From positions 79,619-143,618 of the forward strand of contig CAZDXF010000001.1 of the NCBI GenBank assembly GCA_964509605.1: 64,000 nt of DNA, given 5' to 3'. The notes below the pieces were generated by a model, which worked only from the letters and a program-made list of their open reading frames with translations, did not search any database and was not told the DNA's origin. This DNA comes from an uncultured Candidatus Saccharibacteria bacterium. GTDB taxonomy: Bacteria > Patescibacteriota > Minisyncoccia > Phycocordibacterales > Zambryskibacteraceae. Positions 24,963 to 63,672 of this stretch are shown in pieces (within the stretch, counting starts at the first letter, position 1; each line of letters opens with the position of its first letter). The position numbers were made by a program, and so were the translations under genes.

Positions 24963-25005
24963 TTTAAAAAATATTTTCTAAATTATATCATTTTCACAAC
25001 TTTTT

Positions 25006-25031
25006 ATTTCGTTCGATATATCGAACGAAAT
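25006..25031. promoter_or_regulatory. Perfect 26-bp palindrome ATTTCGTTCGATATATCGAACGAAAT (putative operator) abutting the -35 of the downstream GC-rich gene
   Basis: An exact palindrome. A TTGACTTTTTT-N16-TATAAA promoter follows within 12 bp. Confidence 0.5.
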
Positions 25032-25119
25032 TTACGATGGATATTGACTTTTTTTATATATTTAGTATAAAAAAGATAGACATGTTCTAATCAAACTCAA
25101 TACTCAACGGGGAGGAAAA

Positions 25120-25953
25120 ATGAGAAGGCTCCAGAATTGGTTCAGGAAAATAGGTTCGAAAAAAGTTCTGATTGCCGTGATTGGCGTCGTTTTCGGTACC
25201 TTCCTTGGTTCCTTTTTTACTTTCATGTTTGGTCCAGTCATGGGTCTCGTGCCGGGTCTCGTTATCGGTATCATCGGAGGTCTCTTCCTAGGTCTCTTCT
25301 GGGGTTTTGGATCCACCCTCGGCGTTCTTTTAGCTGTTGCTGTGTGGTTATATCCCGGTCCAATGATTTACACTTGGTTGATGGTAACTTTGTCGCTCGT
25401 CATTAAGAGCTGGTTCTTGGTAAGGGGAGAAATGAGGTGGAAAAAGATAATCTGTACAGAGAATGCTCAACACTACCCTTCCCTTTCCGACCTGAGGCAA
25501 AGCTCTCTTCGGCTGATTGAAGTAGAGGGATTCTCCGTTTTTAAGAAAAAGGCGGAGGAGGTGTACCTAGATCTACCGAAGATCGCCCGAGAGCTCTTAG
25601 ATCTGCATTCCGCCTACAACAAAAGCACTTCCCAAATCAAGACAGAGATGTACAGAGGTGAAATACTTAAGACTGTCGAGAGACTTCTGGAGATGAACGA
25701 GATATTCTCCCAAGAACTCGTCCGTCTTGAGCGTGAACAACCGAGTAGAGAAGCTGACGAATCAAAGATTGTAGTTTCCAAGCTCGCCACAATAGGCGGT
25801 CTTGAAGACACTCTTGATGAACTTCGTCGCCTCAGAGATGGAATGGTTGAAGCGGAAGATGAAACACCTCAAGGCACAGCTCTTGAAAGAGAGATTGATG
25901 GCTTGAAGCAAGCTTCCCCATTGCCGTTTCCTCGCGTGAAAGGCAACTACTAG
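25120..25953 (+). CDS. Hypothetical membrane protein (glycine-zipper-rich 3-TM N-terminus plus cytoplasmic coiled-coil domain); GC-rich cassette gene
   Basis: GGGGAGG Shine-Dalgarno sequence. GxxxG-rich TM helices followed by a ~170-aa charged helical domain. About 50% GC. Own promoter and terminator. Confidence 0.6.
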   Translation: MRRLQNWFRKIGSKKVLIAVIGVVFGTFLGSFFTFMFGPVMGLVPGLVIGIIGGLFLGLFWGFGSTLGVLLAVAVWLYPGPMIYTWLMVTLSLVIKSWFLVRGEMRWKKIICTENAQHYPSLSDLRQSSLRLIEVEGFSVFKKKAEEVYLDLPKIARELLDLHSAYNKSTSQIKTEMYRGEILKTVERLLEMNEIFSQELVRLEREQPSREADESKIVVSKLATIGGLEDTLDELRRLRDGMVEAEDETPQGTALEREIDGLKQASPLPFPRVKGNY

Positions 25954-25954
25954 A

Positions 25955-25999
25955 ACCCCCACGATAACCCCCGCAGGTTGTCGTGGGGGTTATCTTTTT
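25955..25999 (+). terminator. Rho-independent terminator
   Basis: CCCCCACGA...UCGUGGGGG stem followed by UUAUCUUUUUU. Confidence 0.6.
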
Positions 26000-26039
26000 T
26001 ATTTATTAAAATTAATTACAAAGTTTTCCATTTCGTTCA

Positions 26040-26065
26040 ATATATCGAACGAAATGGACTTCTAA
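26040..26065. promoter_or_regulatory. Second copy of the 26-bp palindrome (one mismatch: ATTTCGTTCAATATATCGAACGAAAT)
   Basis: Same sequence as 25006..25031 except G->A at one position. It lies ~70 bp upstream of the next GC-rich ORF. Confidence 0.5.
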
Positions 26066-26133
26066 ATTTATTTCTTTGTGATAGTCTTCTCGAAAGAAAT
26101 TTGCTCTAAACCAAATCCCCCCATGGAGGCTAT

Positions 26134-26382
26134 ATGCCGATGAAGAAGAAGCCCGGCAAGAAGCTCACGCGAAAGCCGAGAAAACCCAAGAATCCACCAA
26201 AAGGTGATTTTGGCAAGGGGTTCGATGACGGTCTCGCCGGGAAATCTCCCATGCTAACAAGTGATAAGTATATCGAGGGATATCGTCTCGGACGAGCAAG
26301 GAGACGGGCAGATATGATTTACCACAACCACGGAGTTCTTAACCCTCGATATCCAGAATACTTGGATGAGGAATTTAAGTAA
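26134..26382 (+). CDS. Hypothetical small, highly basic protein (82 aa); GC-rich cassette gene
   Basis: GGAGG Shine-Dalgarno sequence 5 nt upstream. N-terminus KKKPGKKLTRKPRKPKNPPKG. Followed by a perfect 15-bp-stem terminator. Confidence 0.5.
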   Translation: MPMKKKPGKKLTRKPRKPKNPPKGDFGKGFDDGLAGKSPMLTSDKYIEGYRLGRARRRADMIYHNHGVLNPRYPEYLDEEFK

Positions 26383-26394
26383 CCAAAACCACAC

Positions 26395-26437
26395 CCCGCA
26401 CGGTCGTAGCGCTACGACCGTGCGGTTTCTGTTTTTT
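26395..26437 (+). terminator. Rho-independent terminator (15-bp perfect palindromic stem + U-tract)
   Basis: CCGCACGGUCGUAGC/GCUACGACCGUGCGG followed by UUUCUGUUUUUU. Confidence 0.65.
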
Positions 26438-26450
26438 CTCTTCTGTCTAC

Positions 26451-26500
26451 TTATTACTGTTTACTAATTACTATCTATTAACTCCTGCCTACTATTTTAG
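26451..26500. repeat. TACTGTTTACTAATTACTATCTA...CCTACTATTTTAG motif, copy a of a 3-member repeat family
   Basis: Related copies lie at 34467..34535 and 38600..38637. Each lies just after a GC-rich terminator and overlaps or abuts the stop codon of a convergent minus-strand gene. Confidence 0.5.
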
Positions 26501-26974
26501 TCCCTTACAATTAGAAGCTGGTACATAACCAGCTTTTCTCGCCTCTTCTATTGAAGCGAAAGTTATTTTATTTTCTTCTGCAATTCTTTTTGCGCCCGAA
26601 CACCATGGATAATGATACTTATCACTATTTTTGGAACCAACAACAATTCCATTTTCCTGACTTTCAATTTCATTTTTTATAGTTTTTTGAATTTCTGAAG
26701 AATTGAGCTCGTCTAAAGATAGAACTGCGGAAGCCGAACTATTATCAAAAAACAGCACTTCCGGAGCCGTCTTCTGATCTTTATAAAAAGACAATCTTCC
26801 CAAACCAAAAGAGCCCAGAGCGACCAAAATAATCAAAACTCCTAAAAATAAGTGTTTTTTGACATCATCCCCCCTATCTTTTGGCTCCAAATCAAAAACC
26901 TCCTCTTCATAATTAGCCTTGTTTTGAGGGTCATCTAGGGGGTTGATTTTATTTGACTCTTCTTTTATACTCAT
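26492..26974 (-). CDS. Membrane-anchored protein with C-terminal Ada-N-terminal-like (sunset-like) metal-binding domain
   Basis: One TM helix and a C-terminus KYHYPWCSGAKRI...FASIEEARKAGYVPASNCKG, which resembles the Ada zinc-binding pattern (x..CRPSC...F.S..EA..AGFRPCKRC). Confidence 0.55.
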   Translation of the reverse strand: MSIKEESNKINPLDDPQNKANYEEEVFDLEPKDRGDDVKKHLFLGVLIILVALGSFGLGRLSFYKDQKTAPEVLFFDNSSASAVLSLDELNSSEIQKTIKNEIESQENGIVVGSKNSDKYHYPWCSGAKRIAEENKITFASIEEARKAGYVPASNCKGLK

Positions 26975-26976
26975 CC

Positions 26977-27110
26977 CGTTAGAAGCAGGTCGCGGTCAAG
27001 CGATCTGAGGATTGAAAATAGGTTGTTAATTATCTAATATTTATACTTCTTAATGGTCTGTTTCCTGTTATAACCACGACTGTGGCTTCTAACGGGACTC
27101 ATATCCTGTA
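26977..27110 (+). promoter_or_regulatory. Structured leader upstream of rpmA, closed by a 12-bp long-range inverted repeat
   Basis: CCCGTTAGAAGC (26977-26988) pairs with GCTTCTAACGGG (27099-27110), enclosing ~110 nt directly upstream of the L27 gene. Confidence 0.35.
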
Positions 27111-27153
27111 TTAATCAGCTTATAGGCAAAAACCTAAAGCATCAAGTAAAGCA

Positions 27154-27426
27154 ATGGCATCGAAAAAAGCAGCTGGATCAACAAAAAACGGAAGAGATTC
27201 CAATCCGAAATATCTCGGAATCAAAGTAAGCCCAGGAGCACTAGCTTCTGTTGGTTCTATTTTGGTACGACAAAGAGGAACCGATGTACTCCCTGGTAAA
27301 AATGTTGGTATGGGAAGAGACCACACCCTATTTGCTCTCAAGAATGGAAAGGTGGAAATGAGTCACAAAAGAAAGACTCACTTTGACGGCAAAATAATCA
27401 GAAAGAAAATAATAAGCGTAAACTAG
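27154..27426 (+). CDS. rpmA: 50S ribosomal protein L27
   Basis: [24 protein letters not shown]...VRQRGT...[15 protein letters not shown] is a canonical L27. Confidence 0.9.
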
Positions 27427-27429
27427 AAA

Positions 27430-27460
27430 AACCCTCCAATAAATTGGAGGGTTTTTTGAA
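27430..27460 (+). terminator. Rho-independent terminator
   Basis: AAAAACCCTCCAATAAATTGGAGGGTTTTTTG. Confidence 0.65.
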
Positions 27461-27540
27461 TTTGACTTTTTTGAATGAGATTGTTATAAAAGCTCGAGCT
27501 GTTCTGCAGGAAACCTTCTGCCCCCAAAAGGAGCTGGACT

Positions 27541-27918
27541 ATGCATCTAGCAACCGCAGGTGAAGCGAAGGCACAGTTTATGACAATCCTCATGAGTGAA
27601 GCGGTATCAACAGATGCTATCCTGTCTCTCATCGAGGATATCGAAGCCGGACAAGTGGTGGGTCGAGATTGCGAGAGATGTCCAATCGCTCTTCTCGCCT
27701 ACTACTCTGAGAAGACCTACGAGTCTTTTCGAAGGAGGTTCGGATTTTCTCCCAACTGGAGAGAGAATCCGTTTGAGGTTTTCGTACAGGGAATCTTCTC
27801 CGGACACACTCCGGCGAAAAACTCTGATCTGGCCCATGTCCTCGTGTGGTGCGACGAAGCGCTTATCATGAGGGCCGAGCGAAGTGTGCTGGAAACCTCA
27901 GAGGTCCTCGCTTCCTGA
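27541..27918 (+). CDS. Hypothetical protein (125 aa); GC-rich cassette gene
   Basis: TTGACTTTTTT-N16-TTATAA promoter at ~27466-27498. AAAGGAG Shine-Dalgarno sequence. About 55% GC. A GC hairpin terminator follows. No motif recognised. Confidence 0.5.
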   Translation: MHLATAGEAKAQFMTILMSEAVSTDAILSLIEDIEAGQVVGRDCERCPIALLAYYSEKTYESFRRRFGFSPNWRENPFEVFVQGIFSGHTPAKNSDLAHVLVWCDEALIMRAERSVLETSEVLAS

Positions 27919-27927
27919 ATCAATTCA

Positions 27928-27960
27928 AAAGGCCGTCCCGATGTACCGGGACGGCCTTTC
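27928..27960 (+). terminator. Rho-independent terminator
   Basis: AAAGGCCGTCCCGATGTACCGGGACGGCCTTTC. Confidence 0.6.
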
Positions 27961-27967
27961 AACTTTA

Positions 27968-33808: not shown

Positions 33809-34423
33809 ATGAGCGCTGTTCAAAAACTTACAGAATTGTTTAAAGATTTTCCAGGGATTGGTCCGAGACAAGCCAAGCGGTTTGTATATTTTCTTCTAAC
33901 AAGAAACAAAGATTATTTAAAAGACCTCACTGACGCTATTGAAGAGCTGAAAGCTGAAACGGCTTCTTGCTCATCTTGCTTCAGATTTTTTACAAAAGAA
34001 AAAAACGGATCTTTGGTCTGCCCTATCTGCTCTTCTGCAAACAGAGACAGTGCTTCTTTAATGATTGTCTCAAGAGATGTTGATTTGGAAAATATAGAAA
34101 AGACAGATACCTACAACGGTATGTATTTTGTATTGGGAGGGACCGTGCCAATACTTGAAAAAGAACCCGAAAAAAGAATCCGTATTAGAAATCTGATTAG
34201 AAAAATAGAGGACGGTAAAAAAGATATAAAAGAAATAATTTTTGCCTTGAGTCTTAACCCTGAGGGCGAAAATACAGAAGATTATGTCAGAGAAAAAATT
34301 AAAGATGTTTGTGAAAAAAATTCAATAAAAATTTCTGTTCTTGGCAGAGGTCTCTCCACAGGACTTGAGCTTGAATACTCCGACTCCGAAACCTTAAGAA
34401 ATGCTTTGAAAAATAGAACATAA
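33809..34423 (+). CDS. recR: Recombination protein RecR
   Basis: HhH (FPGIGPRQAKR), a C4 zinc finger (CSSC...CPIC), and a Toprim domain. Confidence 0.9.
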   Translation: MSAVQKLTELFKDFPGIGPRQAKRFVYFLLTRNKDYLKDLTDAIEELKAETASCSSCFRFFTKEKNGSLVCPICSSANRDSASLMIVSRDVDLENIEKTDTYNGMYFVLGGTVPILEKEPEKRIRIRNLIRKIEDGKKDIKEIIFALSLNPEGENTEDYVREKIKDVCEKNSIKISVLGRGLSTGLELEYSDSETLRNALKNRT

Positions 34424-34425
34424 AA

Positions 34426-34470
34426 AAACACCCCGTTTCGCGATTCGCGAAACGGGGTGTTTTTTTCTAC
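34426..34470 (+). terminator. Rho-independent terminator
   Basis: AAAAAACACCCCGTTTCGCGATTCGCGAAACGGGGTGTTTTTTT. Confidence 0.7.
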
Positions 34471-34535: not shown

Positions 34536-34935
34536 TTATTCCCACAATTTCTACTTCAAAATATGGTTGTCTGTGTCCGTATTTTTTAAAGTATCTGCTC
34601 TTCTGTTTGTATTTTATTGTCGTCACTTTTGCATTCCTTCCAATTTTCACCAAAGTCCCCTCTATCTTTGAACCACCTATAACCGGAGTGCCGATTGTGG
34701 TTGTTCCTTTTCCATCATCAAAAAGCAACACTTCATCAAAAACAATTTTGTCTCCAGCTTTATAATCCCCCTTTATTTTTTCAACTTTAATTTTATCTCC
34801 ACTGGAAACCTTGTACTGCTTTCCGCCTGTTGCAAAGACTGCAAACCACCCCTCTTTTGGCAGAGAAGTTTTACTCTTTGCTGGAGCTTTTTTCGCCTTT
34901 TTTTCGGTCTTTTTTACTTGAGTTTCTTTAGACAT
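34531..34935 (-). CDS. rplU: 50S ribosomal protein L21
   Basis: The C-terminal 100 aa match L21 (FAVFATGGKQYKVSSGDKIKVEKI...). A Lys/Ala-rich N-terminal extension begins at MSKETQ. The longer track ORF 34531..35076 is an in-frame read-through of the structured leader. Confidence 0.85.
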   Translation of the reverse strand: MSKETQVKKTEKKAKKAPAKSKTSLPKEGWFAVFATGGKQYKVSSGDKIKVEKIKGDYKAGDKIVFDEVLLFDDGKGTTTIGTPVIGGSKIEGTLVKIGRNAKVTTIKYKQKSRYFKKYGHRQPYFEVEIVGIK

Positions 34936-35267
34936 AACGGGCTCTATTCTATATAAAATCAGGAAAATGGCAAGGCCCTCGAATCGCTCGAGGGCCCGTG
35001 CACCACCCCTTGCTGGGAGTGACCTAAAACTTAAGATTTCACCAACAAGGAGAGACAGTTGGTCACCCCCTCTCAAAGGTTGAGGTTTTGACCTCTAGCC
35101 GATGAGAGAGAGCTTACGGACGACTGTAGCCCATGGTGCATCTCCAAAGCTGGGGTAGGAGGAGAACTGCGGAAGGGTGTTGCGGTTGTCTAAACCTTTT
35201 TCGGAATAAGACCCCCTTTGGTTCAGTCTTTCTTTATTATAACCCCGACTTCACTTAAAACTGGGGA
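34936..35267 (-). promoter_or_regulatory. ~330-nt GC-rich, highly structured 5' leader of rplU (possible ribosomal-protein autoregulatory leader or embedded ncRNA)
   Basis: TATAAT at ~35225. Multiple nested helices, e.g. GGGGGUGACC/GGUCACUCCC, GAGGUCAAAACCUC, and GGCCCUCGAGCGAUUCGAGGGCC. No plausible ORF other than the artefactual rplU N-extension. Confidence 0.4.
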
Positions 35268-36868: not shown

Positions 36869-36934
36869 AAATTTCCACTTGATTTTCGTTAGATGAGTAT
36901 ATACTAGAATACAGAACCCTTTCATGGAGGAATT

Positions 36935-37423
36935 GTGCTGACACTTTCCGCATGTTCCTTTGACATCCAAGTGAGCTCGATGAGTTTGAGTAGGGTCATA
37001 ACCGCTGGAGATTACGATGTCCTGCACCCTCACATCGGGAAAATAGACCTTTCTGTCTGTGACGTGCCCCTCAGTACCAAGGACAGTGGTGTCCGCGTCA
37101 TAAGCTTTGCAACGGTGCGATCCTTAAACGGCAAAGCCGAAGAAGCATACAGGTGTTTCAAAAAGTTCAAAAAGAAACGATTGGCATTGCTTCGCGAATT
37201 TCTTCACATCGGAGTTTGCAAGCCGGAAATTCAAAGGTTCTATCAGATCTTTTGTCTTACGGCGATGTTTCCAGTAAGAAGGTTGAATGGCAAGTGGACC
37301 TCAGTCGTCCTGTTTCTTGATACGGACAAACTCGGAAGAAGGTGTATCGGTCTGCACGATATAGAGAACCCTCTGCCAATGAGTGCTGTGGTTGCCTATG
37401 TGCAATACCCAGAAGTAAGCTGA
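36935..37423 (+). CDS. Hypothetical protein (162 aa); GC-rich cassette gene (GTG start)
   Basis: GGAGG Shine-Dalgarno sequence 4 nt before the GTG. About 50% GC. Own TTGATT...TATACT promoter and a terminator at 37445-37490. No motif recognised. Confidence 0.5.
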   Translation: MLTLSACSFDIQVSSMSLSRVITAGDYDVLHPHIGKIDLSVCDVPLSTKDSGVRVISFATVRSLNGKAEEAYRCFKKFKKKRLALLREFLHIGVCKPEIQRFYQIFCLTAMFPVRRLNGKWTSVVLFLDTDKLGRRCIGLHDIENPLPMSAVVAYVQYPEVS

Positions 37424-37444
37424 CCATCACCAGCGTATCCAGAC

Positions 37445-37490
37445 AGCCCTGGCCCGTTTTAAACGGACCAGGGCTTGCTCTTTTTCATTA
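37445..37490 (+). terminator. Rho-independent terminator
   Basis: CAGCCCUGGCCCGUUUUAAACGGACCAGGGCUUGCUCUUUUUC. Confidence 0.6.
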
Positions 37491-37579
37491 TCCACAGTTT
37501 CTTGACTTTTTCTTTAAAATATGATAGTATTAAGATCGGAAAGCTCCACTACACTCTAACCGAGGGAAGGAGGGGGGGT

Positions 37580-37849
37580 ATGATTCCCCAGGTTTCGTTC
37601 CAAGACCTCGTAAAAGAGGTCAAGGAGCGCCACATTTCGACCGGTGCTCCTCTCACCCTGCTGGTGGGAGAGGCACTCGCAAGATGTGGTACTGCTGATC
37701 CAGAAGCGAAGTGCAAGCTTCTGTCGGCGGTCGTAGGCGAAGTCCCCTCTTGGAAGCAGGTTCGGAGGGGACTCGTGGAAGAACGGCGGGGCCGTAGTGG
37801 CGTGGTATATCGCGCCGAAAACGGCTTCCAGCCAGAGCGGGACGACTAG
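37580..37849 (+). CDS. Hypothetical protein (~90 aa); GC-rich cassette gene
   Basis: Canonical TTGACTTTTT-N17-TAGTAT promoter at ~37501-37535. GGAGGGGGGG Shine-Dalgarno sequence. A hairpin terminator overlaps the stop (GGGACGACUAGUACAGUCGUCCC + U-tract). Coordinates are ±1 nt. Confidence 0.45.
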   Translation: MIPQVSFQDLVKEVKERHISTGAPLTLLVGEALARCGTADPEAKCKLLSAVVGEVPSWKQVRRGLVEERRGRSGVVYRAENGFQPERDD

Positions 37850-37971
37850 TACAGTCGTCCCGTATTTTTTATTTTAAAAATTAAAAAGCGCGCCGTTGAC
37901 TAACTAAATATTTTATACTATTGTTTGCGCTAGCAGTTCCTAAACAAACAAAAACTACTTTGGAGGTATAT

Positions 37972-38544
37972 ATGTCCACCGAAGGACAGACCAACGACTC
38001 AGCCAACGAGCTGATTCGAAGTTTTCCGAAGGACAGAAGGCTCTTTTTGGGCGACACGGTGGATGCAAAAGAGTCTCGCAGACTCATTTCAAGCATCGTA
38101 TCGCTCTCTGCAACTGAAGACCCAATTCTTCTTACCATCAATTCTGGTGGAGGAGGTTTTTGGGAAGGACACTATCTCTATGATGCAATCAGGGTGTGTC
38201 CAGTATCTGTCACAGGTCTTGTGATTGGTACGGCCTCGTCTGTGGCTTGCGTTATCCTGCAGGCCTGCAATCGAAGATTGATCACCAAACACTCCAGAAT
38301 TCTGGTTCACCCTCCGTCTTTCAGAGGAGATGTGGAGTTTGACATTCACTCTGACAACGAGAGGACTCTCCGAGAAATGCGACACTGGTACAAGGAATTC
38401 AGGCGCAATGTGAGGAGAACTGAAGAACTCCTTCTCAATCATTGCAACCTGAACAGGAACCAGCTTCGCAGTCTTATGGAAAAGGAACTGTATCTCGAGT
38501 CTGACGAAGCGCTAAAAATGGGCTTCGTGGATGAAGTGGTTTAG
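37972..38544 (+). CDS. ClpP-family serine peptidase (S14), stand-alone; GC-rich cassette gene
   Basis: RLFLGDTVD...LTINSGGG...YDAI...GTASSVACVIL (Ser)...SRILVHPP (His)...ESDEALKMGFVDEV (Asp) aligns to the ClpP catalytic triad. GGAGG Shine-Dalgarno sequence, TTGACT promoter, and a GC hairpin terminator. About 50% GC. Confidence 0.8.
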   Translation: MSTEGQTNDSANELIRSFPKDRRLFLGDTVDAKESRRLISSIVSLSATEDPILLTINSGGGGFWEGHYLYDAIRVCPVSVTGLVIGTASSVACVILQACNRRLITKHSRILVHPPSFRGDVEFDIHSDNERTLREMRHWYKEFRRNVRRTEELLLNHCNLNRNQLRSLMEKELYLESDEALKMGFVDEVV

Positions 38545-38550
38545 GTTTGG

Positions 38551-38590
38551 AAAGTGCCCGCGACGCCTTGGCGTCGCGGGCCTTTCTCTT
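38551..38590 (+). terminator. Rho-independent terminator
   Basis: AAAGTGCCCGCGACGCCTTGGCGTCGCGGGCCTTTCTCTTTTTC. Confidence 0.65.
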
Positions 38591-39329: not shown

Positions 39330-39370
39330 ATCAAATAAATAAAAACACTGCGCAATTTGAATTGCGCAGT
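39330..39370. terminator. Bidirectional terminator (12-bp perfect stem flanked by A5/T5), plus a second hairpin at 39386-39410
   Basis: AAAAACACTGCGCAATTTGAATTGCGCAGTGTTTTT, followed by CGTGTCGACCTGGCAGGTCGACACG. Confidence 0.55.
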
Positions 39371-39416
39371 GTTTTTATCACCAACCCGTGTCGACCTGGC
39401 AGGTCGACACGCTTTT

Positions 39417-40159: not shown

Positions 40160-40175
40160 AGATCTCATCACCAGA

Positions 40176-40195
40176 CACGACCCTACCGGGAATCG
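40176..40195. repeat. Direct repeat of the 3' end of tRNA-Glu (19/20 identical to 40356..40375), att-like
   Basis: CACGACCCTACCGGGAATCG versus CATGACCCTACCGGGAATCG. The upstream copy has no complete tRNA body. Confidence 0.5.
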
Positions 40196-40357
40196 GTCAC
40201 AAGTCCAATTCATTCTGAATTGGCTCGCGACCCCGACTCGGCAACCCCGCCCTCTAATTAGAGGGCGGGGGCTTCGCGCCTCTGTCTTTCGATTCCCAGT
40301 ATGGAACCCTGTGGGTACTAAAAATCCGATGCTCTCGCATCGGATCTTAAGTACCCA

Positions 40358-40429
40358 TGACCCTACCGGGAATCGAACCCGGCTTTGGAGCTTGAGAAGC
40401 TCCCGTCCTAACCGATAGACGATAGGGCC
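40358..40429 (-). tRNA. tRNA-Glu (anticodon CUC)
   Basis: Manual cloverleaf. Acceptor GGCCCUA/UAGGGUC, D-arm GUCU/GGAC with a GG loop, anticodon stem GGAGC/GCUCC with loop UUCUCAA, T-arm CCGGG-UUCGAUU-CCCGG, discriminator A. No encoded CCA. Confidence 0.85.
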
Positions 40430-45354: not shown

Positions 45355-45444
45355 TTCTTCCCACTTAACTACAAGTGTAAAACACTTACTCCCACTCAGT
45401 GAAACTTTTTATCCACATTTTTGGTGAACTTCCGTTCACTAATA

Positions 45445-45490
45445 AAAAGAAAACCCACACGACACCTGGAATGGTGTCGTGTGGGAATTT
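45445..45490 (-). terminator. Rho-independent terminator of the GC-rich three-gene operon
   Basis: On the minus strand: CCCACACGACACCAUUCCAGGUGUCGUGUGGG + UUUUCUUUUU. Confidence 0.65.
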
Positions 45491-45505
45491 AGGAACAACT
45501 TTGTA

Positions 45506-47284
45506 TCAAACGCCAACGGTGAGACGACGCTTCTTTGTCGCCACCTTTTTGGACTGAGACTTGCCATCGGAAGACTTCTGATCCTTAACGTTGCTGTCAA
45601 GAATCTTCTTGCCACGACGTCCTCCAAACTGACGCCCGGCGATGGTATCGCCGTGAATCAGCATGAAAACGTACGGGGCATAGGTCTCCTCCAACACAAG
45701 TTCTGCGAACGGCGCCCAATCGCTCGGGGCGGCCCGGAGAGCCAGCGCCTGTAGCATGACATACTCCTGGAAACGCATCAGAGTTCTGTCACTGTGCTCT
45801 TCGCACTGTTGCCACAGAGGGTGCAGAACATTAATCCTCAGGGTGCCGGTTTCCTCTTCCAATACCCAGAGTCGGTCGCTTCCCTGAATAGCATCATGCA
45901 CCAACTGAAGTCCGAGACTGTTGCTACGGACAATCGTTCGGCGTGTGCCTTTTGGACCAACGACCGTCATGGGACGGTGTTCTGGACGTTCCTTCTCGGG
46001 TTCAAAGTTCTCATTACCCTCACCCTCACCATTTGAGGGCTTCTCGGGACGAAGGTTATTGACGGCCAGAGACGTTTCCGGAGAAGGACTTCCCTTCTTT
46101 TCGAAATGCCCAGGTCCAATCGAACCCTTCTTGAAAGACTCAATGGCCTTGAGAAGCCCAGCAAACTGCGGCCTCTTCAACATCTCTTCGATGACTTTCA
46201 TCGAACGAATGCCGAGTTGCTGGTAGCGCTCCTCTTGCCGCTGATCATTAGCGTCCTGATAATGCTCGGCGCCGTGTTCAGCGAACCACTTTTCGAGGAT
46301 CACACAGAAACCAACCAGCGACTCGTCGGCCTCAAACGACCGGCGACTGGCGTGGAGTGTGATTGCACTGTTGAGGACCTCACCCTCGAAAAGACCAGAA
46401 CCCAGAGCAGACACAAGCTCATCCGAGAGCTTACACGCCTCCGGCAAGGACCGATTGAATGTCGAGAAGTTCAGACGAAAATCGTTGTCCTTCTCGCCAA
46501 CCAAGACCTTACCATTGCGCTTACCCTTCTTATCCTTCTGGGCCAAGAAGAGTCGGAAGTGGGTCTGCCCCGACTCCCTGTCTCGATAATCGACCTCTTC
46601 CAGCTTCCTGCCAGTGAAGTCCTTGGCCCTGATTTCACAACTCTGCCGTTCACCGTCTTCATCGACGACAGTCAACTCAATCACCGACTGGTTCTTACGC
46701 ATGGTGGAAGCGAAACGCTCCAACACACCATCACGAAGGGAATCCATAGTCACGATGTTGATCTGTCGATCGGTCGTGAACCCTTCGATTCTCACCTCAG
46801 TACGCCAGCGAACAGAGGACACTCCACGAACCACTCGCGTCTCTGCCCGAGAAAACTGCAGATCGAGGCGCTCCCTCATGGGGATGCCTTCGATCTTCTG
46901 CTGTTTCAGGAGATCGTCGGTAACGAAGCTCCACTCCAAGAAACCCTTGGGGTTCCGCTTGGTAGTGGAGGTAAAGATGAATCGAGCACACTTGCCCAAT
47001 GGCGAGATAAGCCCAAGACCAAAGCGTCCCAATTTATCCTTCTTCTTGATGGAAGAGGAAACGCTGGTCAGGGCCTTTTCAAACTCTTGCTGACTCACTC
47101 CATCTCCATCATCGCGGACAGCGATCTGACGCTGCTTCTGATTCACAACGATGGTGATAACCTGAGCTCCCTTGTCGAGACAGTTTTGCACGCTCTCGAG
47201 CAAGACATCCAGGATCCTAGGGTAGTACCCCGCAAGTTTGAGCAGGGCCGCTCCCTCATGAAAACTAAAAGGGCTCTGTTTCAC
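45506..47284 (-). CDS. GHKL-superfamily ATPase (MORC/MutL/Hsp90-like Bergerat fold) with unknown C-terminal domains; third gene of the GC-rich operon
   Basis: N-box ESVQNCLDKGA (ExxxNxxD), G1 RDDGDGV, and G2 LGRFGLGLIS, followed by ~450 aa without recognised motifs, including an E/G-rich linker. GTG start with an AAAGGAGA Shine-Dalgarno sequence. About 55% GC. Confidence 0.7.
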   Translation of the reverse strand: MKQSPFSFHEGAALLKLAGYYPRILDVLLESVQNCLDKGAQVITIVVNQKQRQIAVRDDGDGVSQQEFEKALTSVSSSIKKKDKLGRFGLGLISPLGKCARFIFTSTTKRNPKGFLEWSFVTDDLLKQQKIEGIPMRERLDLQFSRAETRVVRGVSSVRWRTEVRIEGFTTDRQINIVTMDSLRDGVLERFASTMRKNQSVIELTVVDEDGERQSCEIRAKDFTGRKLEEVDYRDRESGQTHFRLFLAQKDKKGKRNGKVLVGEKDNDFRLNFSTFNRSLPEACKLSDELVSALGSGLFEGEVLNSAITLHASRRSFEADESLVGFCVILEKWFAEHGAEHYQDANDQRQEERYQQLGIRSMKVIEEMLKRPQFAGLLKAIESFKKGSIGPGHFEKKGSPSPETSLAVNNLRPEKPSNGEGEGNENFEPEKERPEHRPMTVVGPKGTRRTIVRSNSLGLQLVHDAIQGSDRLWVLEEETGTLRINVLHPLWQQCEEHSDRTLMRFQEYVMLQALALRAAPSDWAPFAELVLEETYAPYVFMLIHGDTIAGRQFGGRRGKKILDSNVKDQKSSDGKSQSKKVATKKRRLTVGV

Positions 47285-47301
47285 TGCAGTCTCCTTTTTG
47301 C

Positions 47302-48072
47302 TTATTGCTGGTGGTTGTTGACAAGCTCGCGAGCCTTCTCACTACAGAGTCGACTCGACGCTTTCGACAGGCGAAACATACCATCAGATCCAGTCCGCTT
47401 ACGCAGCTCGTTACGTTGTTCTCGACTGGTTTCAGAAACCGCCCTTTCAAGAAGAGGGGTGATAGCCAAAACCAGATGAGCCAAGACCTCAATTGAAATT
47501 GGGTCTTGTTTCTCAAGATCGAGTGCGCCTTTTGCTACTTGAGTAACTGGTGTACTGGGGGGGTCCGTCTCAACATAAATCTTGATTGACGGAACCCGCA
47601 TCAAAACGCTAAGCAGGGTGGCCTTTTTCTTTGCCAACTCTTCCCCTGCTTCCCCATAGAGCCTTTCTACCTTCTGCGTTCTGGCAGTGTTGGTATCAGA
47701 ATCCGCACGAGCCAAGCGAAATACGCTGTGCGTATCACCGAAACCAAGATGTTCACGGGCTTCTTCTGGCGTCAAAATATCGTACGCCAAAAGCTCGGCT
47801 AGCTTGTGACTGACATGATCAGTACCATGCACATATTCCACAAGCTCGTACCCAACCGCTTCGAGAAATAGACGAAGCTTGATCAGTGGCTCTCCCAACG
47901 GAACATTTCGACCATAAATCCAGGCCGATACCGTGTCAGGATGAACGCGCACAAACTCAACCAGTGGCAATTTCGCCTTGCCAGCTTCCTTGCTACCTTT
48001 CGGTGGTAGAGAATGTTCGGCAAAATGTGCCAAACACTCAATTGTGGTGCCTCGAAACAGTTTACTCATCAC
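47302..48072 (-). CDS. Hypothetical helical protein (256 aa); second gene of the GC-rich operon
   Basis: AAGGAG Shine-Dalgarno sequence 6 nt upstream. About 55% GC. It lies 17 bp upstream of the GHKL ATPase gene. Confidence 0.6.
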   Translation of the reverse strand: MMSKLFRGTTIECLAHFAEHSLPPKGSKEAGKAKLPLVEFVRVHPDTVSAWIYGRNVPLGEPLIKLRLFLEAVGYELVEYVHGTDHVSHKLAELLAYDILTPEEAREHLGFGDTHSVFRLARADSDTNTARTQKVERLYGEAGEELAKKKATLLSVLMRVPSIKIYVETDPPSTPVTQVAKGALDLEKQDPISIEVLAHLVLAITPLLERAVSETSREQRNELRKRTGSDGMFRLSKASSRLCSEKARELVNNHQQ

Positions 48073-48086
48073 TTTCTCCTTGTCGC

Positions 48087-48365
48087 TTATTGCTGGTTTA
48101 TTTCTGCGAGTGAAAAAGGTCTGGCCTCAAATGCGCGCCAACCCTTGGCAAACTTCTGGAGATTACCCAGAAGAACTACTTGACCCTTTCGGACATCTGC
48201 CGAACCTTTCCAATATTCGATCGAAAAGGTTACAGCAGTGCCCTTAGGTAAAACACCGTCGATTTTTGTGAAGGTTACTGCGTAGCGTCCATTACTGGAC
48301 GAACGAATTTCTCCTACAGTTGCCTCCAGAAGAGAATCTCTCTCTTCTCTCTTAACATTTGACAC
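48087..48365 (-). CDS. Hypothetical small protein (~92 aa, GTG start); first gene of the GC-rich operon
   Basis: An internal GAAAGGAGCAAAAAAGUG (Shine-Dalgarno + GTG) lies inside the track ORF 48087..48452. That ORF has no Met and starts with TTG directly after the lysS terminator. A TTGACA-N17-TATTGT promoter lies upstream at 48406-48434. The C-terminal tail and the following junction resemble those of gene 2. Confidence 0.4.
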   Translation of the reverse strand: MSNVKREERDSLLEATVGEIRSSSNGRYAVTFTKIDGVLPKGTAVTFSIEYWKGSADVRKGQVVLLGNLQKFAKGWRAFEARPFSLAEINQQ

Positions 48366-48405
48366 TTTTTTGCTCCTTTCAAAGAACTGTTTAAAAACTG
48401 GCAAA

Positions 48406-48434
48406 ACAATATCAGTAAAATTAATTTTGTCAAG
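48406..48434 (-). promoter_or_regulatory. Candidate sigma70-type promoter of the GC-rich operon (TTGACA-N17-TATTGT)
   Basis: Read on the minus strand. It is located between the lysS terminator hairpin (48462-48498) and the internal SD-GTG start. Confidence 0.4.
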
Positions 48435-48522
48435 ATTAGGGACTTTTATCAAAGAAGATCAGAAAACAAAAAAATACTGAGTAAATATCCTCAGTATTTT
48501 TTTGTTTTTTATTCACTTTTCT

Positions 48523-50587: not shown

Positions 50588-50616
50588 AGACTAGACTAAA
50601 AACCACTTGACTAAAA
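50588..50616 (+). promoter_or_regulatory. Strong sigma70-type promoter TTGACT-N16-TATAAT driving the downstream noncoding locus
   Basis: ACTTGACTAAAATATTATATTTGATATAATAGG. Confidence 0.55.
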
Positions 50617-50621
50617 TATTA

Positions 50622-50945
50622 TATTTGATATAATAGGATGAGATTGAAGTAATGGTCTGCCCGACCTACGGGGTACAGTCGGGAACAAAACAGGCCGAAT
50701 GGTATCGGTGGAGACTTCCCCGCCATTGATCCGGCACAAGCAGAAAGGCTCGGTACGCCCTATCCAAAAGGATAAACAACGGCCGACACCTCCTGCTCGG
50801 AACTCTGGTAAAGCAAGCTCCTGCGATGCCCCGGCGTGTTTTAGCTAATCTTATATGATTGGCCGCGCCGGAACCGAACAAAATGGGCGCCCAGCGTCCT
50901 GAAATAATAAGGTCCCGACGCGCGTGTCGGGACCTGTTTTTTTAT
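50622..50945 (+). ncRNA. Structured ncRNA candidate (~325 nt, GC-rich, promoter-to-terminator, no ORF); class unassigned (long-form SRP RNA, RNase P RNA or tmRNA are candidates)
   Basis: About 58% GC. Nested helices GGUCUG/CAGGCC and CCCGAC/GUCGGG. A UCCGGCACAAGCAGAAAGG segment resembles SRP domain IV (UCCGGAAGGAAGCAGC). The 3' terminator is GGUCCCGACGCGCGUGUCGGGACC + U7. No forward ORF. Confidence 0.5.
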
Positions 50946-61112: not shown

Positions 61113-61156
61113 ATTTGGAGTTTGTAAAAGGTCTCTGAAAACAATAGTATTTAAGT

Positions 61157-63049
61157 ATGAGAGTCTTTGCTGTTATCCCAATTTCTAAAGGGATATCTAA
61201 AAACCTACTTTCTTACTTTGGCCCTGATTCAATTCCATTAGGCTCTTTAGTTTCTGTGCCACTCAGAGGAAAAGCTACTCCAGCAATAGTGGTAAAAAAA
61301 CAAGATGTCTTACACATAAAAAGCGAGTTGCGAAGTGCCAAATTTGAGCTTAAAAAAATAATTGCTGTAAAAGAAAAACATTTCTTGCCCGATAAGTTTT
61401 TGGAAAGCGCAGAGCAAACAGCAGAATTTTTTGCTTCTCCGATAGGGTCTTTTCTCGGTTCTGTAGTACCAAAATTTGTATTGGAACATTCAAGTAAAAT
61501 TGGAACAAAAGAAACCGGCACAGCCCATGGTGCTGGTGAAAAATTTGTAATACAGGCAGATGACGAAGAAAGAATTGTAAATTACAAAAGTTTTATCAGA
61601 GAAGAATTCGCAAAAAAACGATCTGTTTTTTTCTGCCTGCCGACAATAGAAGACATTAATAAAATAGAAAAGGTTTTGGATAGAGGTATAGAGCAATACA
61701 CTGTTTCTTTTCATAGCGGGCTTTCAAAAAAAGAATTTCTAAAAAGATACGAGGTGGTTAAAGATAGATCCCATCCTGTTTTGATTATCGGGACAGTCCC
61801 CTTTCTCTCTCTGTTTAGACAAGACATAGGATCAATAATTTTGGACAGAGAAAATTCTAGAGGATACAGAACTCTTTCAAGACCCTTTGTGGATTTAAAA
61901 AAATTCGCGGAAATTTTTGCTAAAAACAGAAAAGCTCGCTTTATTTTGGGAGACTCATTTCTCTCTGTAGAAACTCTATGGAGACAAAAAAATGATGAAC
62001 TCTTGGAATTCTCTCCAGTAAAATTCAGAAATTTAAGCTCTGCTGAGTGCGTGCTTATAGATATGAAAAAGAAAAAAGACTCCGAAGAGAAGGAGTTTAG
62101 GGTACTGAGTCCAGAGCTTGAAGAGCTCATCGAATTTAACAAGAAAAAAAATCAAAACCTTTTTATATTTAGTTCTAGAAAGGGTCTCTCTCCAGTGACG
62201 GTATGCGGAGATTGCGGAAAAGTGGTCGTATGCAAATCCTGTGGAGCTGTGTTAGTGCTTCACTCTGGAACACAAAACAAAGAAAATTTCTTTTTGTGCC
62301 ACAAGTGCGGAGAACAAAGAAGCGCTACGGAAAAATGTGAAAATTGCCGAAGCTGGAAACTTAATCCTCTTGGTATTGGAATAGAAAAAGTTGAAATAGA
62401 AATAAAGAAAAAATTCCCAGATGTAAAAATCTTTAGAGTAGACAAAGAATCGGCCAAAACTCAGAAAAAAGCTCGAGAAATTGTTTCAAAATTTGTCTCT
62501 TCCCCAGGGTCTATCCTTCTGGGCACAGAGATGGCTCTACTTTCTCTTTCGGAGTCGGTCGAAAATACAGCGGTCGCCTCTATGGACTCAATGTTTTCAA
62601 TTCCAGATTTTAGAATAAACGAAAGAGTTTTTTATATTCTCCAAAAAGTGAGATCTTTGGCAAAAAACATTTTTCTAGTTCAGACCAGAAACAGCGATAA
62701 CCCACTTTTTGAAAAAGCTATAAATGGTAGTGTTACGGAATTTTTTAGACAAGAGATAGAAGAAAGAGAAAAATTTAATTATCCTCCGTTCAAAATCTTT
62801 GTAAAAATTAGTTTGCAAGGGAAAAAAGCTGTTGTTTTGAAAGAAATGGAAGCTATTGAAAAAATGTTTGAAGGCGAAGACTTGAGCGTCTTTACTGGAT
62901 CTATCTCCGGAACTGGCGAAAAAATATTTTCTGTTCATGCATTAATGCGCTTTTCGCCAAAAGATTGGCCTAAAAAGTCTGTTATTGAAAAGATTCTACT
63001 TCTGCCACCACAATTCAAAATCCAAGTAGACCCAGAGAGTTTGCTTTAG
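61157..63049 (+). CDS. priA: Primosomal protein N' (PriA) homologue with degenerate helicase motifs
   Basis: N-terminal 3'-DNA-binding-like domain and the PriA Cys-rich region (CGDCGKVVVCKSCG...CHKCGEQ...CENC), with the C-terminal domain. Walker A is replaced by GTAHGAGEKF and the DEAH box by ILDRENS. Confidence 0.7.
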   Translation: MRVFAVIPISKGISKNLLSYFGPDSIPLGSLVSVPLRGKATPAIVVKKQDVLHIKSELRSAKFELKKIIAVKEKHFLPDKFLESAEQTAEFFASPIGSFLGSVVPKFVLEHSSKIGTKETGTAHGAGEKFVIQADDEERIVNYKSFIREEFAKKRSVFFCLPTIEDINKIEKVLDRGIEQYTVSFHSGLSKKEFLKRYEVVKDRSHPVLIIGTVPFLSLFRQDIGSIILDRENSRGYRTLSRPFVDLKKFAEIFAKNRKARFILGDSFLSVETLWRQKNDELLEFSPVKFRNLSSAECVLIDMKKKKDSEEKEFRVLSPELEELIEFNKKKNQNLFIFSSRKGLSPVTVCGDCGKVVVCKSCGAVLVLHSGTQNKENFFLCHKCGEQRSATEKCENCRSWKLNPLGIGIEKVEIEIKKKFPDVKIFRVDKESAKTQKKAREIVSKFVSSPGSILLGTEMALLSLSESVENTAVASMDSMFSIPDFRINERVFYILQKVRSLAKNIFLVQTRNSDNPLFEKAINGSVTEFFRQEIEEREKFNYPPFKIFVKISLQGKKAVVLKEMEAIEKMFEGEDLSVFTGSISGTGEKIFSVHALMRFSPKDWPKKSVIEKILLLPPQFKIQVDPESLL

Positions 63050-63123
63050 TTTGACAAATAATTTATATATGTCATGATTGGTAACAGACAACAACATAGT
63101 TCTTCATCAACAAGGAGAAACAG

Positions 63124-63573
63124 ATGCGCAAAACTATATGTGCCCTGATTTTTGGGCTTTCCGTTTTCGCATGCGAAAACGGAGCGTCGGTGGTAGATAG
63201 ACCAAATAGTAGTACCGGTGCTTCGGAGACATTGTTTAGGTTCGAACTGGCCCCGCAAATGAACGGTCATCTTTTCAGGAGCGGAGACTATTTCTTCTAT
63301 GTGATGTGTATGGGGCTTAACAGCCGAACTCGTTTTGAGAACGACCCACCGTGGTGGAACGCTCAGGTTAGGTTCGGACTAAGTCTGGAGAAATTGAAAA
63401 TCGACTCTCTTAGACTGGATATGGTTCAGCCTGGGCACTGGAATACTCACTACGGTAAAGATGAGTGGCGTCAGAATTCACCCAGCGCGACTCCAATCAG
63501 AGATATCAAGACAATCACCATCAACAGAACTGAGGGTTCTGCTTGTTGGCTCCTTCGAACAAAAGAATTCTGA
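63124..63573 (+). CDS. Hypothetical lipoprotein (149 aa); GC-rich cassette gene
   Basis: AAGGAGA Shine-Dalgarno sequence. Signal peptide with a lipobox-like LSVFAC. About 50% GC. A GC hairpin terminator follows. Confidence 0.5.
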   Translation: MRKTICALIFGLSVFACENGASVVDRPNSSTGASETLFRFELAPQMNGHLFRSGDYFFYVMCMGLNSRTRFENDPPWWNAQVRFGLSLEKLKIDSLRLDMVQPGHWNTHYGKDEWRQNSPSATPIRDIKTITINRTEGSACWLLRTKEF

Positions 63574-63577
63574 CCCC

Positions 63578-63615
63578 ACGAAGAACCTCACAGTTCTTCG
63601 TGGGGTTCTTTTCTT
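63578..63615 (+). terminator. Rho-independent terminator
   Basis: CCACGAAGAACCUCACAGUUCUUCGUGG + GGUUCUUUUCUU. Confidence 0.6.
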
Positions 63616-63617
63616 GA

Positions 63618-63672
63618 GTTATTTAAATAAAAGCTACCCTGATCTTTTTGCTTGTCAAAAAGCCAACGGGCA
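63618..63672 (+). promoter_or_regulatory. def promoter module (TTGTCA-N17-TAAGCT), inverted copy of 58958..59014
   Basis: AAGCTACCCTGATCTTTTTGCTTGTCAAAAAGCCAACGGGCACGTAAGCT. Confidence 0.45.

Follow-up and report, generated by a model that had tools for sequence, protein, structure and literature searches.

Compact accessory DNA units of several kinds have been described in bacteria and their phages. Phage morons (HK97/HK022 type; Juhala, Hendrix) are promoter-gene-terminator units of deviant GC content (PMC3594210), and the minimal mobile elements of Neisseria (Saunders and Snyder 2002; used in PMC1797815) are alternative cassettes located between conserved flanking genes. In the present study, we analyzed a 64,000-nucleotide stretch from an uncultured Candidatus Saccharibacteria bacterium (GenBank assembly GCA_964509605.1, contig CAZDXF010000001.1, positions 79,619 to 143,618), hereafter called the window, together with the GC-rich gene cassettes embedded in it (C1 to C7 and a doubtful C8). 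The window was found to be a chromosome of Paceibacteria, within the candidate phyla radiation (CPR), that is built of housekeeping genes, and its DnaB showed 80% identity to Paceibacteria/Zambryskibacteria-type metagenome-assembled genomes (MAGs). We consider it probable, at roughly 60%, that the cassettes are members of a flexible pool of self-contained accessory units, which occupy intergenic hot spots and are exchanged without dedicated mobility machinery, some of them being long-resident and fast-evolving. The cassette set comprised 12 open reading frames (ORFs) in nine transcription units and was compared with a reference set of 60 backbone genes from the window.

Compared with morons, the cassettes were similar but not identical. 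Like a moron, each cassette is a gene or short operon between conserved syntenic genes, has deviant GC content, carries what its sequence indicates to be its own promoter and factor-independent terminator, and is recognized as extra DNA through comparison with relatives. In contrast to morons, the cassettes lie in a cellular housekeeping chromosome and not inside a phage or prophage, are led by Shine-Dalgarno (SD) sequences in a leaderless backbone, and include several old residents whose deviant GC content has been maintained. Judged from these signals, the cassettes appear to work like morons but are not morons. The similarity to the Neisseria elements lies in the arrangement of sites: conserved flanks hold unrelated cassettes or none, most cassettes contain one to three genes, and no transposase, integrase, other mobility gene or terminal repeat of their own was found. 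Four sites (L27-L9, RNase T-Ada, LysS-MraZ and GreA-PBP2) showed alternative cassettes or none, although between species and not between strains; the Neisseria elements were defined among strains of one transformable species, whereas the present comparison covers species and genera of uncultured bacteria. The Neisseria elements are not known to differ systematically from their core genome in GC content or SD usage.

Two further classes were compared. Integron gene cassettes are also small, mostly single-gene, highly diverse and often ORFans, but they are promoterless, bear attC sites and are arrayed next to intI, whereas the units in the window are dispersed, have their own promoters and terminators, and showed no shared imperfect-palindrome site and no integrase. 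Genomic islands, islets and atypical genes (the atypical class of GeneMarkS-2, PMC6028130) resemble the cassettes in being compositionally atypical accessory genes, here in a streamlined genome. Unlike such islands, the cassettes measure ~0.4-3 kb, are scattered, are not tied to tRNA genes or integrases, and are shifted to higher GC in both low- and high-GC hosts, a shift that survives synonymous saturation. Horizontal transfer has been documented among Patescibacteria (PMC12455944), and no description of the cassette architecture in CPR bacteria was found in the searchable literature.

As evident from the sliding-window analysis, GC content was 0.44-0.57 at the predicted cassette loci and ~0.33-0.41 elsewhere. 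The backbone genes showed a GC content of 0.373±0.030 and a third-position GC content (GC3) of 0.312±0.041 (range 0.22-0.41), whereas the cassette ORFs had a GC content of 0.45-0.59 and a mean GC3 of 0.54 (range 0.38-0.71), and both differences were highly significant (Mann-Whitney, p = 6e-8 for GC and p = 8e-8 for GC3). First- and second-position GC (GC1 and GC2) were also higher in the cassettes (p ~5e-5 and ~3e-5, respectively), and codon fractions diverged between cassettes and backbone (ATC, 0.52 vs 0.10; AAG, 0.67 vs 0.21; AGA, 0.19 vs 0.61). The original prediction that these genes differ from the backbone in GC content was therefore confirmed, and the GC3 and codon statistics withstood the refutation test that had been set for it. 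A structured-RNA account of the GC islands was rejected for the 12 ORFs because they are long, SD-led and show coding-type GC1, GC2 and GC3; Rfam and ARAGORN found only the tRNA-Glu, and the account was accepted solely for positions 50607-50945.

The initiation signals also separated the two groups of genes. When a strong SD was defined as an anti-SD duplex energy of -8 kcal/mol or lower, strong SDs were present at 11 of the 12 cassette starts and at none of the 60 backbone starts (Fisher p = 4e-12), in line with the prediction. Because automatic start choice by best SD produced ~10% false SDs among backbone genes, the window statistics used curated starts, and the automatic procedure was kept only for symmetric comparisons in relatives. 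Starts refined relative to the earlier list were those of C4b (ATG, 37580), C4c (ATG, 37972) and C6a (GTG, 48365). The 16S rRNA 3' end, sought as a check of the anti-SD, was absent from all 177 sequences (176 fetched loci of relatives, referred to by L numbers, and the window).

In the backbone, a -10-like hexamer, often with TG, ended 4-14 nt 5' of the ATG in 9 of 28 first-in-operon genes. In particular, extended -10 elements (TGnTATAAT-like) without an SD were located 4-9 nt 5' of the ATG upstream of, for example, 29813, 32423, 35268 (-) and 36422, and further examples were found upstream of 38630 (-), 39902 and 41885 (-). Since the -10 element lies so near the ATG, the transcripts of such genes should be leaderless or nearly so, which implies, as far as sequence signals can indicate, that many backbone mRNAs are leaderless or short-leadered. 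Among 555 backbone genes of related Paceibacteria loci, the -10 hexamer also peaked 5-9 nt before the start codon (25% vs ~5% background), whereas cassette-like genes of these loci had almost no -10 hexamer within 20 nt and showed TTGAC upstream at twice the backbone frequency. We found no paper linking leaderless transcripts with Parcubacteria.

Every cassette ended in a hairpin of 11-16 pairs, of which 7-10 were G-C pairs, followed by Ts, in agreement with the predicted GC-rich terminators. This feature is not exclusive to the cassettes, because terminators of equal strength were also found 3' of some backbone genes (27430, 34423-34465, 18460-18504, 39338-39411 and 48462-48509). The promoters were less clear. 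Eight units showed a -35 element of TTGAC(T/A) or TTGATT with a -10-like hexamer 15-17 nt downstream, and C2 showed only TGGACT; these promoter-like pairs were located 40-110 nt upstream of the start codons. A near-consensus promoter had been claimed for each cassette; the -35 elements were readable in the eight units, but the -10 hexamers were non-consensus (TATAAA, TATTGT, TAGTAT), C2 was weak, and promoter-like matches in the region were not above those in shuffles (53 vs 40±7; 32 vs 31±5). Since the statistics give no support, the putative cassette promoters were assigned from where they lie and from their conservation in congeners. With regard to the shared -35 context also claimed, exact TTGACTTTTT was marginally enriched (four copies vs 1.1 expected; 2 of 100 shuffles reached four), and cassette promoters accounted for three of the four copies. 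As a common context with one mismatch allowed, TTGACTTTTT was rejected, given that 19 copies were observed and 25 expected.

To place the cassettes in their genomic setting, we compared the window with 80 GTDB genomes whose backbone genes follow the same order between the ABC exporter and the dcw cluster. In tblastn searches of these loci, C1, C3, C4a, C4b, C6 and C7 had no match and C2 had one, so that the cassettes were found to be accessory and not core genes, which agrees with the original proposal. The single C2 orthologue lay at the equivalent site of L012 (4103-4315) and showed 45% identity, an SD, a terminator and a GC3 of 0.54. The gap between the Ada-like gene and the RNase T gene, which is 1529 bp in the window and contains C1 and C2, was only 7-19 bp in L013, L014 and L035; because the pair is adjacent in these three relatives, parsimony favors insertion of C1 and C2. 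Between L27 and L9, the 541-bp gap of the window contains C3, whereas among 42 relatives the gap did not exceed 120 bp in 21 and was longer than 300 bp in 13, nine of which were GC-richer there than the genome. At the LysS/MraZ site, which holds the C6 operon in the window, none of the 46 metagenome loci compared carried C6, and in 20 of them the gap measured 147-330 bp. The GreA/PBP2 site, occupied by an RNA unit in the window, was 40-100 bp in most relatives and contained GC-rich inserts of 400-1500 bp in others.

The C1/C2, C3 and C6 sites were empty in many relatives (the empty-site alleles sought at RNase T-Ada, L27-L9 and LysS-MraZ) and carried unrelated GC-rich SD-led genes in others. 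At L27-L9, the window, L012 and L016 shared a common layout of backbone terminator, TTGAC(T/A) promoter, SD, ORF and second terminator. The ORFs themselves differed; C3 had 25% identity to its counterpart in L017 (E = 8e-8), and other genomes held unrelated ORFs.

Two congeners, L173 and L174, showed DnaB identities to the window of 96% and 87%, respectively, and both carried orthologues of C4a, C4b, C4c and C5 at the same positions, with the SD kept in all four. Protein identity was 32-73% for these cassettes and 67-96% for the neighboring backbone genes; cassette proteins therefore diverge very fast. The C4a orthologues were the most divergent (32% identity over 79 aa) and kept the SD and terminator with a GC3 of 0.41-0.47, whereas those of C4b showed 64-67% identity and a GC3 of 0.66-0.68. 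The C5 orthologues, located beside the MGMT gene, showed 64-66% identity and a GC3 of ~0.6, and a further one was found in L014 by BLASTP. Among the window, L173 and L174, fourfold-degenerate sites of the backbone were at or near saturation (identity 0.24-0.52), while GC at such sites (GC4) was 0.42-0.75 in the C4b and C4c orthologues and 0.2-0.5 in the backbone.

The GC3 of the C4b, C4c and C5 orthologues (0.5-0.7) thus remained clearly high and that of C4a only modestly raised, which does not fit the recent import implied by the original prediction. Because these genes are GC-rich in saturated congeners, the composition of most of C4a-c and C5 is maintained and is not a fading donor signature. 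An exception was a probable C3 homologue in L016, which had a host-like GC3 of 0.32. Additionally, when backbone genes were compared between the window, L173 and L174, the nearest neighbor was not the same for all genes, a mixed signal that hints at recombination.

A similar pattern was found across the clade. In 83 related loci, consisting of the GTDB genome loci and three contexts of the GHKL module described below, genes were called GC3-rich when their GC3 was at least 0.10 above the locus median (dGC3). Strong SDs preceded 62 of 176 GC3-rich genes and 106 of 1344 others (p = 1.5e-20), and cassette-like genes, which were short, usually ended in a stable hairpin and were almost all singletons, were detected in 36 of 82 loci. 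The SD enrichment was clear in hosts with a median GC3 below 0.5, weak above this value, and absent for GC-poor outlier genes. The probable pool of moron-like gene islets would accordingly be clade-wide and shared across Paceibacteria. A family of common origin, as originally proposed, was not supported, since the units share architecture but no sequence save one block upstream of C1 and C2, and most are singletons.

The C6 operon (45454..48433, -) provided the best-traced example. It contains three genes, namely C6a (48365-48087, 92 aa, GTG start), C6b (48069-47302, 255 aa, with an N-terminal helix-turn-helix (HTH)-like region) and C6c (47284-45506, 592 aa, a GHKL ATPase), which are preceded by a putative promoter, TTGACA-16-(TG)TATTGT (48433-48406), and the SD AAAGGAG and followed by a terminator (45485-45454). 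A 23-nt repeat, ACCAGCAATAAGCnAnAAGGAGA, comprising stop codon and SD, was found at both internal junctions (48075-48097 and 47290-47312, -), and as it forms both junctions, the C6a and C6b proteins share a terminal QQ before the stop codon, with an identical SD behind it. C6c matched PF13589 (E = 2e-13, 50.9 bits against a cut-off of 25), with profile matches to MutL and PMS2, and its AlphaFold model (pLDDT, the predicted local distance difference test, 83.5) matched Hsp90, MutL and GyrB at E ~1e-11. The predicted fold accordingly resembles an ATPase domain joined to a transducer domain, as in the GHKL superfamily; the C-terminal half was unique. In PADLOC, C6c matched only TmtA, and weakly (E = 2.6e-7, residues 25-92, within the ATPase domain), and C6a and C6b matched nothing; an identity of C6 with a known defense system was rejected on this essentially empty result. 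The C6c protein was also present on a 204-kb NCBI contig and in Logan assemblies of SRR15237813.

C6c had 72 homologues, and those with a named source were mostly from CPR bacteria (Sungbacteria, Magasanikbacteria, Paceibacterota). A module of an HTH-like partner of ~250 aa and a GHKL ATPase was found in six backbone contexts in six CPR genomes, namely between LysS and MraZ in the window, between RseP and ProS in L176 (6769-13105; backbone syntenic with the window), between clpP and tig in L009 (8572-12705), near RmuC in L003, and at other sites in L006 and L175. In L009, the module splits the otherwise conserved tig-clpP pair. The GC content of the module was 0.08-0.13 above that of the host in six hosts of 38-58% GC, the richest included. 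A full-length relative with 30% identity was additionally located on an IMG/VR contig, L091, of 57% GC, where it showed no GC offset.

These observations are consistent with a model in which each unit starts with a promoter (-35 and -10 elements) and a leader of 40-60 nt bearing a strong SD, continues with a single ORF or a short operon and closes with an intrinsic terminator, and would be expressed and insulated wherever it lands because it carries these signals. By analogy with the Neisseria elements, units may be gained, lost and swapped through DNA uptake and recombination via the conserved flanking genes; alternatively, they may be inserted illegitimately beside backbone terminators. The products, exemplified by the HTH and GHKL-ATPase operon, a lipoprotein, the ClpP-like protease and small proteins of membrane-like or basic character, may serve fast-evolving roles in defense, envelope functions or host interaction. 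The high GC content would not be a one-off donor imprint; selection, GC-biased gene conversion or continued exchange with a pool of higher GC would uphold it. The "foreign, recently acquired" view of the cassettes is only partly right. With regard to the proposed mobile cassette system, neither shared boundary repeats nor mobility genes were found: no direct or inverted repeats bounded the cassettes, a search around five units gave only the terminator hairpins and the C1/C2 block, the terminal inverted repeats and target-site duplications of transposons, insertion sequences or miniature inverted-repeat elements were absent, and family scans of the window revealed zero integrase, transposase or phage structural or replication genes.

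Several observations weigh against a pool of exchanged units. No donor was found, and C1 and C4a had no homologues in protein searches; C6c was not found in 50,697 phage records (INPHARED), and a profile scan of IMG/VR gave only the one distant relative (30%). Regression to a pool mean is disfavored by the GHKL offset, which persisted even in the host with 58% GC. An import model predicts amelioration, yet the GC4 of C4b and C4c stays at 0.42-0.75 despite backbone saturation, contrary to the amelioration model that Lawrence and Ochman reportedly proposed in 1997. C4a-c and C5 are vertically conserved in the genus, and for them horizontal origin would be an inference about the deeper past. In a second independent set of 52 LysS metagenome loci, the link between GC3 and SD was weaker: at a dGC3 of at least 0.10, strong SDs were present in 10 of 51 genes vs 90 of 721 others (p = 0.19, not significant), and at a dGC3 of at least 0.15 in 7 of 15 vs 93 of 757 (p = 0.001). 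Lastly, a GIY-YIG gene (22758-23033, -; 91 aa) separates the gene of the ABC ATPase from that of the FtsX-like permease; in relatives lacking it, the gap between these two genes is 16-34 bp. This insertion has a host-like GC content (GC3 0.34) and no SD or promoter of its own and therefore belongs to another class of mobile gene than the cassettes; its homologue in L014 sits between RmuC and YqeY.

The persistence of the GC offset suggested a further reading, which we put forward only tentatively, namely that Paceibacteria genomes have two compartments, an AT-rich leaderless core and a GC-richer, SD-led, fast-evolving accessory part whose composition is actively maintained past synonymous saturation. 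Either GC-biased conversion acting at hot spots of recombination or selection tied to expression mode may be responsible, and the offset of ~+0.1 GC may then be a property of the compartment and not of a donor. In an extreme and purely speculative version, the cassettes would owe their canonical sigma-70, SD and terminator signals and their mid-GC codon usage to being destined for expression in a different cell, perhaps the bacterium on which an episymbiont lives, by analogy with T-DNA.

It is also conceivable, but rather unlikely, that the cassettes evolve fast but are native genes passed on vertically, forming a second (leadered, SD-dependent) expression class, with a GC equilibrium set by mRNA selection or GC-biased gene conversion and with absences that represent losses. 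The conserved positions, SDs and GC3 of 0.5-0.7 of C4b, C4c and C5 in the saturated congeners (C4a sharing the position and the SD) agree with this explanation, as do the C4b promoter and its adjoining DnaA box, which are conserved in three genomes, the operator-like palindrome of C1 and C2, which suggests integration in host regulation, the C3 homologue of 25% identity at the same site in L017, the GHKL module that is GC-richer than every host, and the lack of SD enrichment in low-GC3 outliers. It is harder to reconcile with a module found at six backbone sites that splits conserved pairs such as tig-clpP, with unrelated ORFs at the same hot spot across genomes, with the predominance of singletons among cassette-like genes in the 83 loci, and with C1 and C2 splitting an Ada-RNase T pair that is adjacent in three relatives. 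Moreover, the probable L016 homologue of C3 indicated that the GC level is not always held, and the effects of GC-biased gene conversion in bacteria that Lassalle and colleagues reportedly described in 2015 are far smaller than a GC3 shift of 0.2-0.3.

A phage derivation, in which the cassettes would be decayed prophage remnants or morons of GC-richer, SD-using Paceibacteria phages, appeared improbable. The units are dispersed singly across 40 kb and not clustered, no phage structural, replication or integrase genes are present in the window, and single-protein scans of IMG/VR with C1, C4c and C6c found nothing. INPHARED likewise gave no match to C6c and at most 28% identity for C4c. The unit structure with deviant GC content does fit the definition of a moron (PMC3594210), prophages have been reported in Paceibacteria (PMC12455944), and C4c matched head-maturation-protease families of PHROG (E = 3e-22). 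ORFans are said to have been classically ascribed to phages by Daubin and Ochman in 2004. The full-length GHKL relative on the GC-rich IMG/VR contig L091, where it lacks a GC offset, also speaks for a phage derivation. Against this, none of the 10 proteins tested from L091 was recognizable as a phage protein.

An artefact, whether a chimera of the assembly, contaminating DNA of higher GC from another organism or the engineered inserts once suggested, can be dismissed despite the abrupt composition jumps and two Logan contigs that end in or at the edge of cassettes, since the junctions C6-MraZ and RNase T-C1-C2 are each bridged by Logan contigs of an independent assembly, orthologous cassettes occupy identical syntenic sites in other samples and studies (L173, L174, L012, L014, L017), cassette edges precisely adjoin backbone terminators and promoters, and the architecture recurs in 36 of 82 related loci. 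Against engineering in particular, dozens of environmental MAGs contain units of this type.

CPR bacteria, or Patescibacteria, represent a large share of bacterial diversity, and their accessory genomes are almost uncharacterized. If a flexible pool of exchanged cassettes exists, a simple sequence rule (local GC excess, strong SD and private promoter and terminator against a leaderless AT-rich core) would flag this pool in MAGs, and the flagged genes would probably include defense, envelope and host-interaction genes. Gene callers would then need two start models for these genomes. Such a pool would also bear on the question of how the GC content of certain genes can remain above that of the genome around them, for which amelioration, biased gene conversion and selection are the competing answers; the standard import-and-ameliorate model does not predict a GC offset that outlasts synonymous saturation and follows its hosts across 38-58% GC. 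Because the cassettes carry canonical bacterial expression signals, they may be expressible as they are in laboratory hosts.

C1 and C2 are located in tandem. C1 (25006..26000, +) contains a -35 element TTGACT (25044-25049), a -10 element TATAAA (25066-25071), the SD GGGGAGG (25109-25115; -10.8 kcal/mol), a coding sequence (CDS) of 277 aa (25120-25953, GC3 0.50) and a terminator at 25954-25991 followed by Ts. Its product is predicted to have a membrane N-terminus and a coiled coil, and no homologue was found among 5.8 billion proteins (ORFan). C2 (26030..26436, +) encodes a basic protein of 82 aa (26134-26382), with the weak promoter TGGACT at 26055-26060, the SD GGAGG at 26125-26129 and a terminator at 26396-26425. 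A perfect 26-nt palindrome, ATTTCGTTCGATATATCGAACGAAAT, was found at 25006-25031 upstream of C1, and a second copy with one mismatch at 26030-26055 upstream of C2. It lies within a repeated upstream block of 58 nt, 12-23 nt 5' of the -35 element, occurs nowhere else in the window, and is probably an operator for some regulator.

C3 (27462..27965, +) lies between the convergent rpmA (L27) and rplI (L9) genes. Its promoter, TTGACT-17-TATAAA (27462-27490), directly follows the L27 terminator, and the SD AAGGAG (27528-27533), a CDS of 125 aa (27541-27918) and a terminator (27928-27959) complete the unit. C7 (63051..63615, +) has a -35 element TTGACA (63051-63056), the SD AAGGAG (63112-63117), a CDS of 149 aa (63124-63573) and a terminator (63573-63606). 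The C7 product carries a lipoprotein-like signal peptide ending in VFAC and had zero matches in Pfam and PHROG.

The C4 locus contains three separately signaled genes. C4a (36879..37485, +) has the promoter TTGATT-15-TATACT (36879-36905), the SD GGAGG (36926-36930), a CDS of 162 aa with a GTG start (36935-37423) and a terminator at ~37444-37476; among 1.84 billion representative proteins, it matched only itself. C4b (37488..37870, +) begins with the DnaA box TTATCCACA (37488-37496), followed by TTGACT-17-(TG)TAGTAT (37502-37530), the SD GGAAGGAGG (37566-37575), a CDS of 89 aa (37580-37849) and a terminator (37837-37863). The promoter and the adjoining perfect DnaA box were conserved in the window, L173 and L174; together with the C1/C2 palindrome, this box suggests possible regulation by host factors. 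In total, three perfect DnaA boxes (TTATCCACA / TGTGGATAA) were found, at 37488-37496, 45409-45417 and 17267-17275, and the box at 45409 is flanked by the C6 terminator and mraZ.

C4c (37896..38590, +) contains the promoter TTGACT-17-TATTGT (37896-37924), the SD GGAGG (37962-37966), a CDS of 190 aa (37972-38544) and a terminator (38556-38581). Its product belongs to the ClpP (S14) family of serine proteases (PF00574, E = 5.6e-25, 88.7 bits against a cut-off of 20.2). The statement that every cassette product is hypothetical was therefore incorrect, as C4c is a ClpP-family protease and C6c a GHKL ATPase. The C4c sequence is divergent and comes nearest to prohead-protease families of phages. It had just three close homologues (66-76% identity), of which the two fetched were both chromosomal and syntenic, and identity elsewhere was at most 34%. 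C5 (38899..39334, -) has the promoter TTGATT-16-TATTGT (39334-39307), the SD GGAGG (39276-39272), a CDS of 106 aa with an Arg-rich tail (39267-38947) and a terminator (38927-38899), and its GC3 of 0.71 was the highest among the cassettes. C3, C4a, C4b and C5 encode small proteins in which no known domains were found (Pfam, PHROG).

The possible member at 19292-19483 (C8, 19250..19690, -) is a membrane-like ORF of 63 aa (19483-19292). A GC3 of 0.56 and a terminator support its inclusion, but its membership is doubtful because it has no SD (+0.1 kcal/mol). The ORF is preceded by a GC-rich leader of ~150 nt (19484-19640, -) with a long-range stem formed by CCCCCUUCUUGUC and GACAAGAGGGGGG, and tblastn found no homologue in the related loci. 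Nearby, a promoter-like TTGACTTTTT-17-(TG)TACAAT was located at 19121 (19093-19121, -), followed only by a short hairpin.

A unit at 50607..50945 (+), missed in the earlier list, has the consensus promoter TTGACT-16-TGaTATAAT (50607-50634) and a strong terminator (50910-50935) separated by ~305 nt, of which ~270 nt have a GC content of 0.55. No convincing ORF was found (the longest plus-strand ORF was 49 aa), and the predicted fold had a minimum free energy of -120 kcal/mol (z = -4.67 vs shuffles). Rfam gave nothing even at E <= 1, and BLASTN detected no copy in relatives. On the basis of the predicted fold, the unit is probably a structured RNA and a candidate for a novel accessory structured RNA or micro-peptide unit.

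Every family-assigned backbone gene in the window was a housekeeping gene. These comprised DnaK/DnaJ, several aminoacyl-tRNA synthetases, ScpA/B, MraY-FtsW-MurG, a LexA-like protein, DsbA/VKOR and the ABC exporter; RNase T, L27, L9, CtpA, CorA, CysS, DnaB, RecR, L21, RmuC, YqeY, MGMT and tRNA-Glu(CTC); and MurE-PBP-FtsL-RsmH-MraZ, LysS, GreA, PBP2-MreC-MreB, RseP, RRF, HolB and PriA. The only tRNA in the window was Glu-CTC (40358-40429, -), found by ARAGORN and likewise by Rfam at gathering thresholds. A ~17-nt copy of its 3' end (gaccctaccgggaatcg) lies ~165 bp beyond the intact tRNA, in the region 40160-40357, with a terminator and a GC-rich hairpin in between. From its sequence, this copy looks like the scar of an element formerly integrated in the tRNA; no integrase was found, and no cassette lies between the two 3'-end copies. 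Near the tRNA-Glu region, L173 instead carried a defense island (GmrSD-like, EcoRI-type methylase, DUF3800). Additionally, L21 (34531-35076, -) has an N-terminal extension of ~77 aa that is GC-richer than the remaining gene (34801-35200, GC 0.48), and in many relatives the tblastn alignments of L21 began only at residues 34-78.

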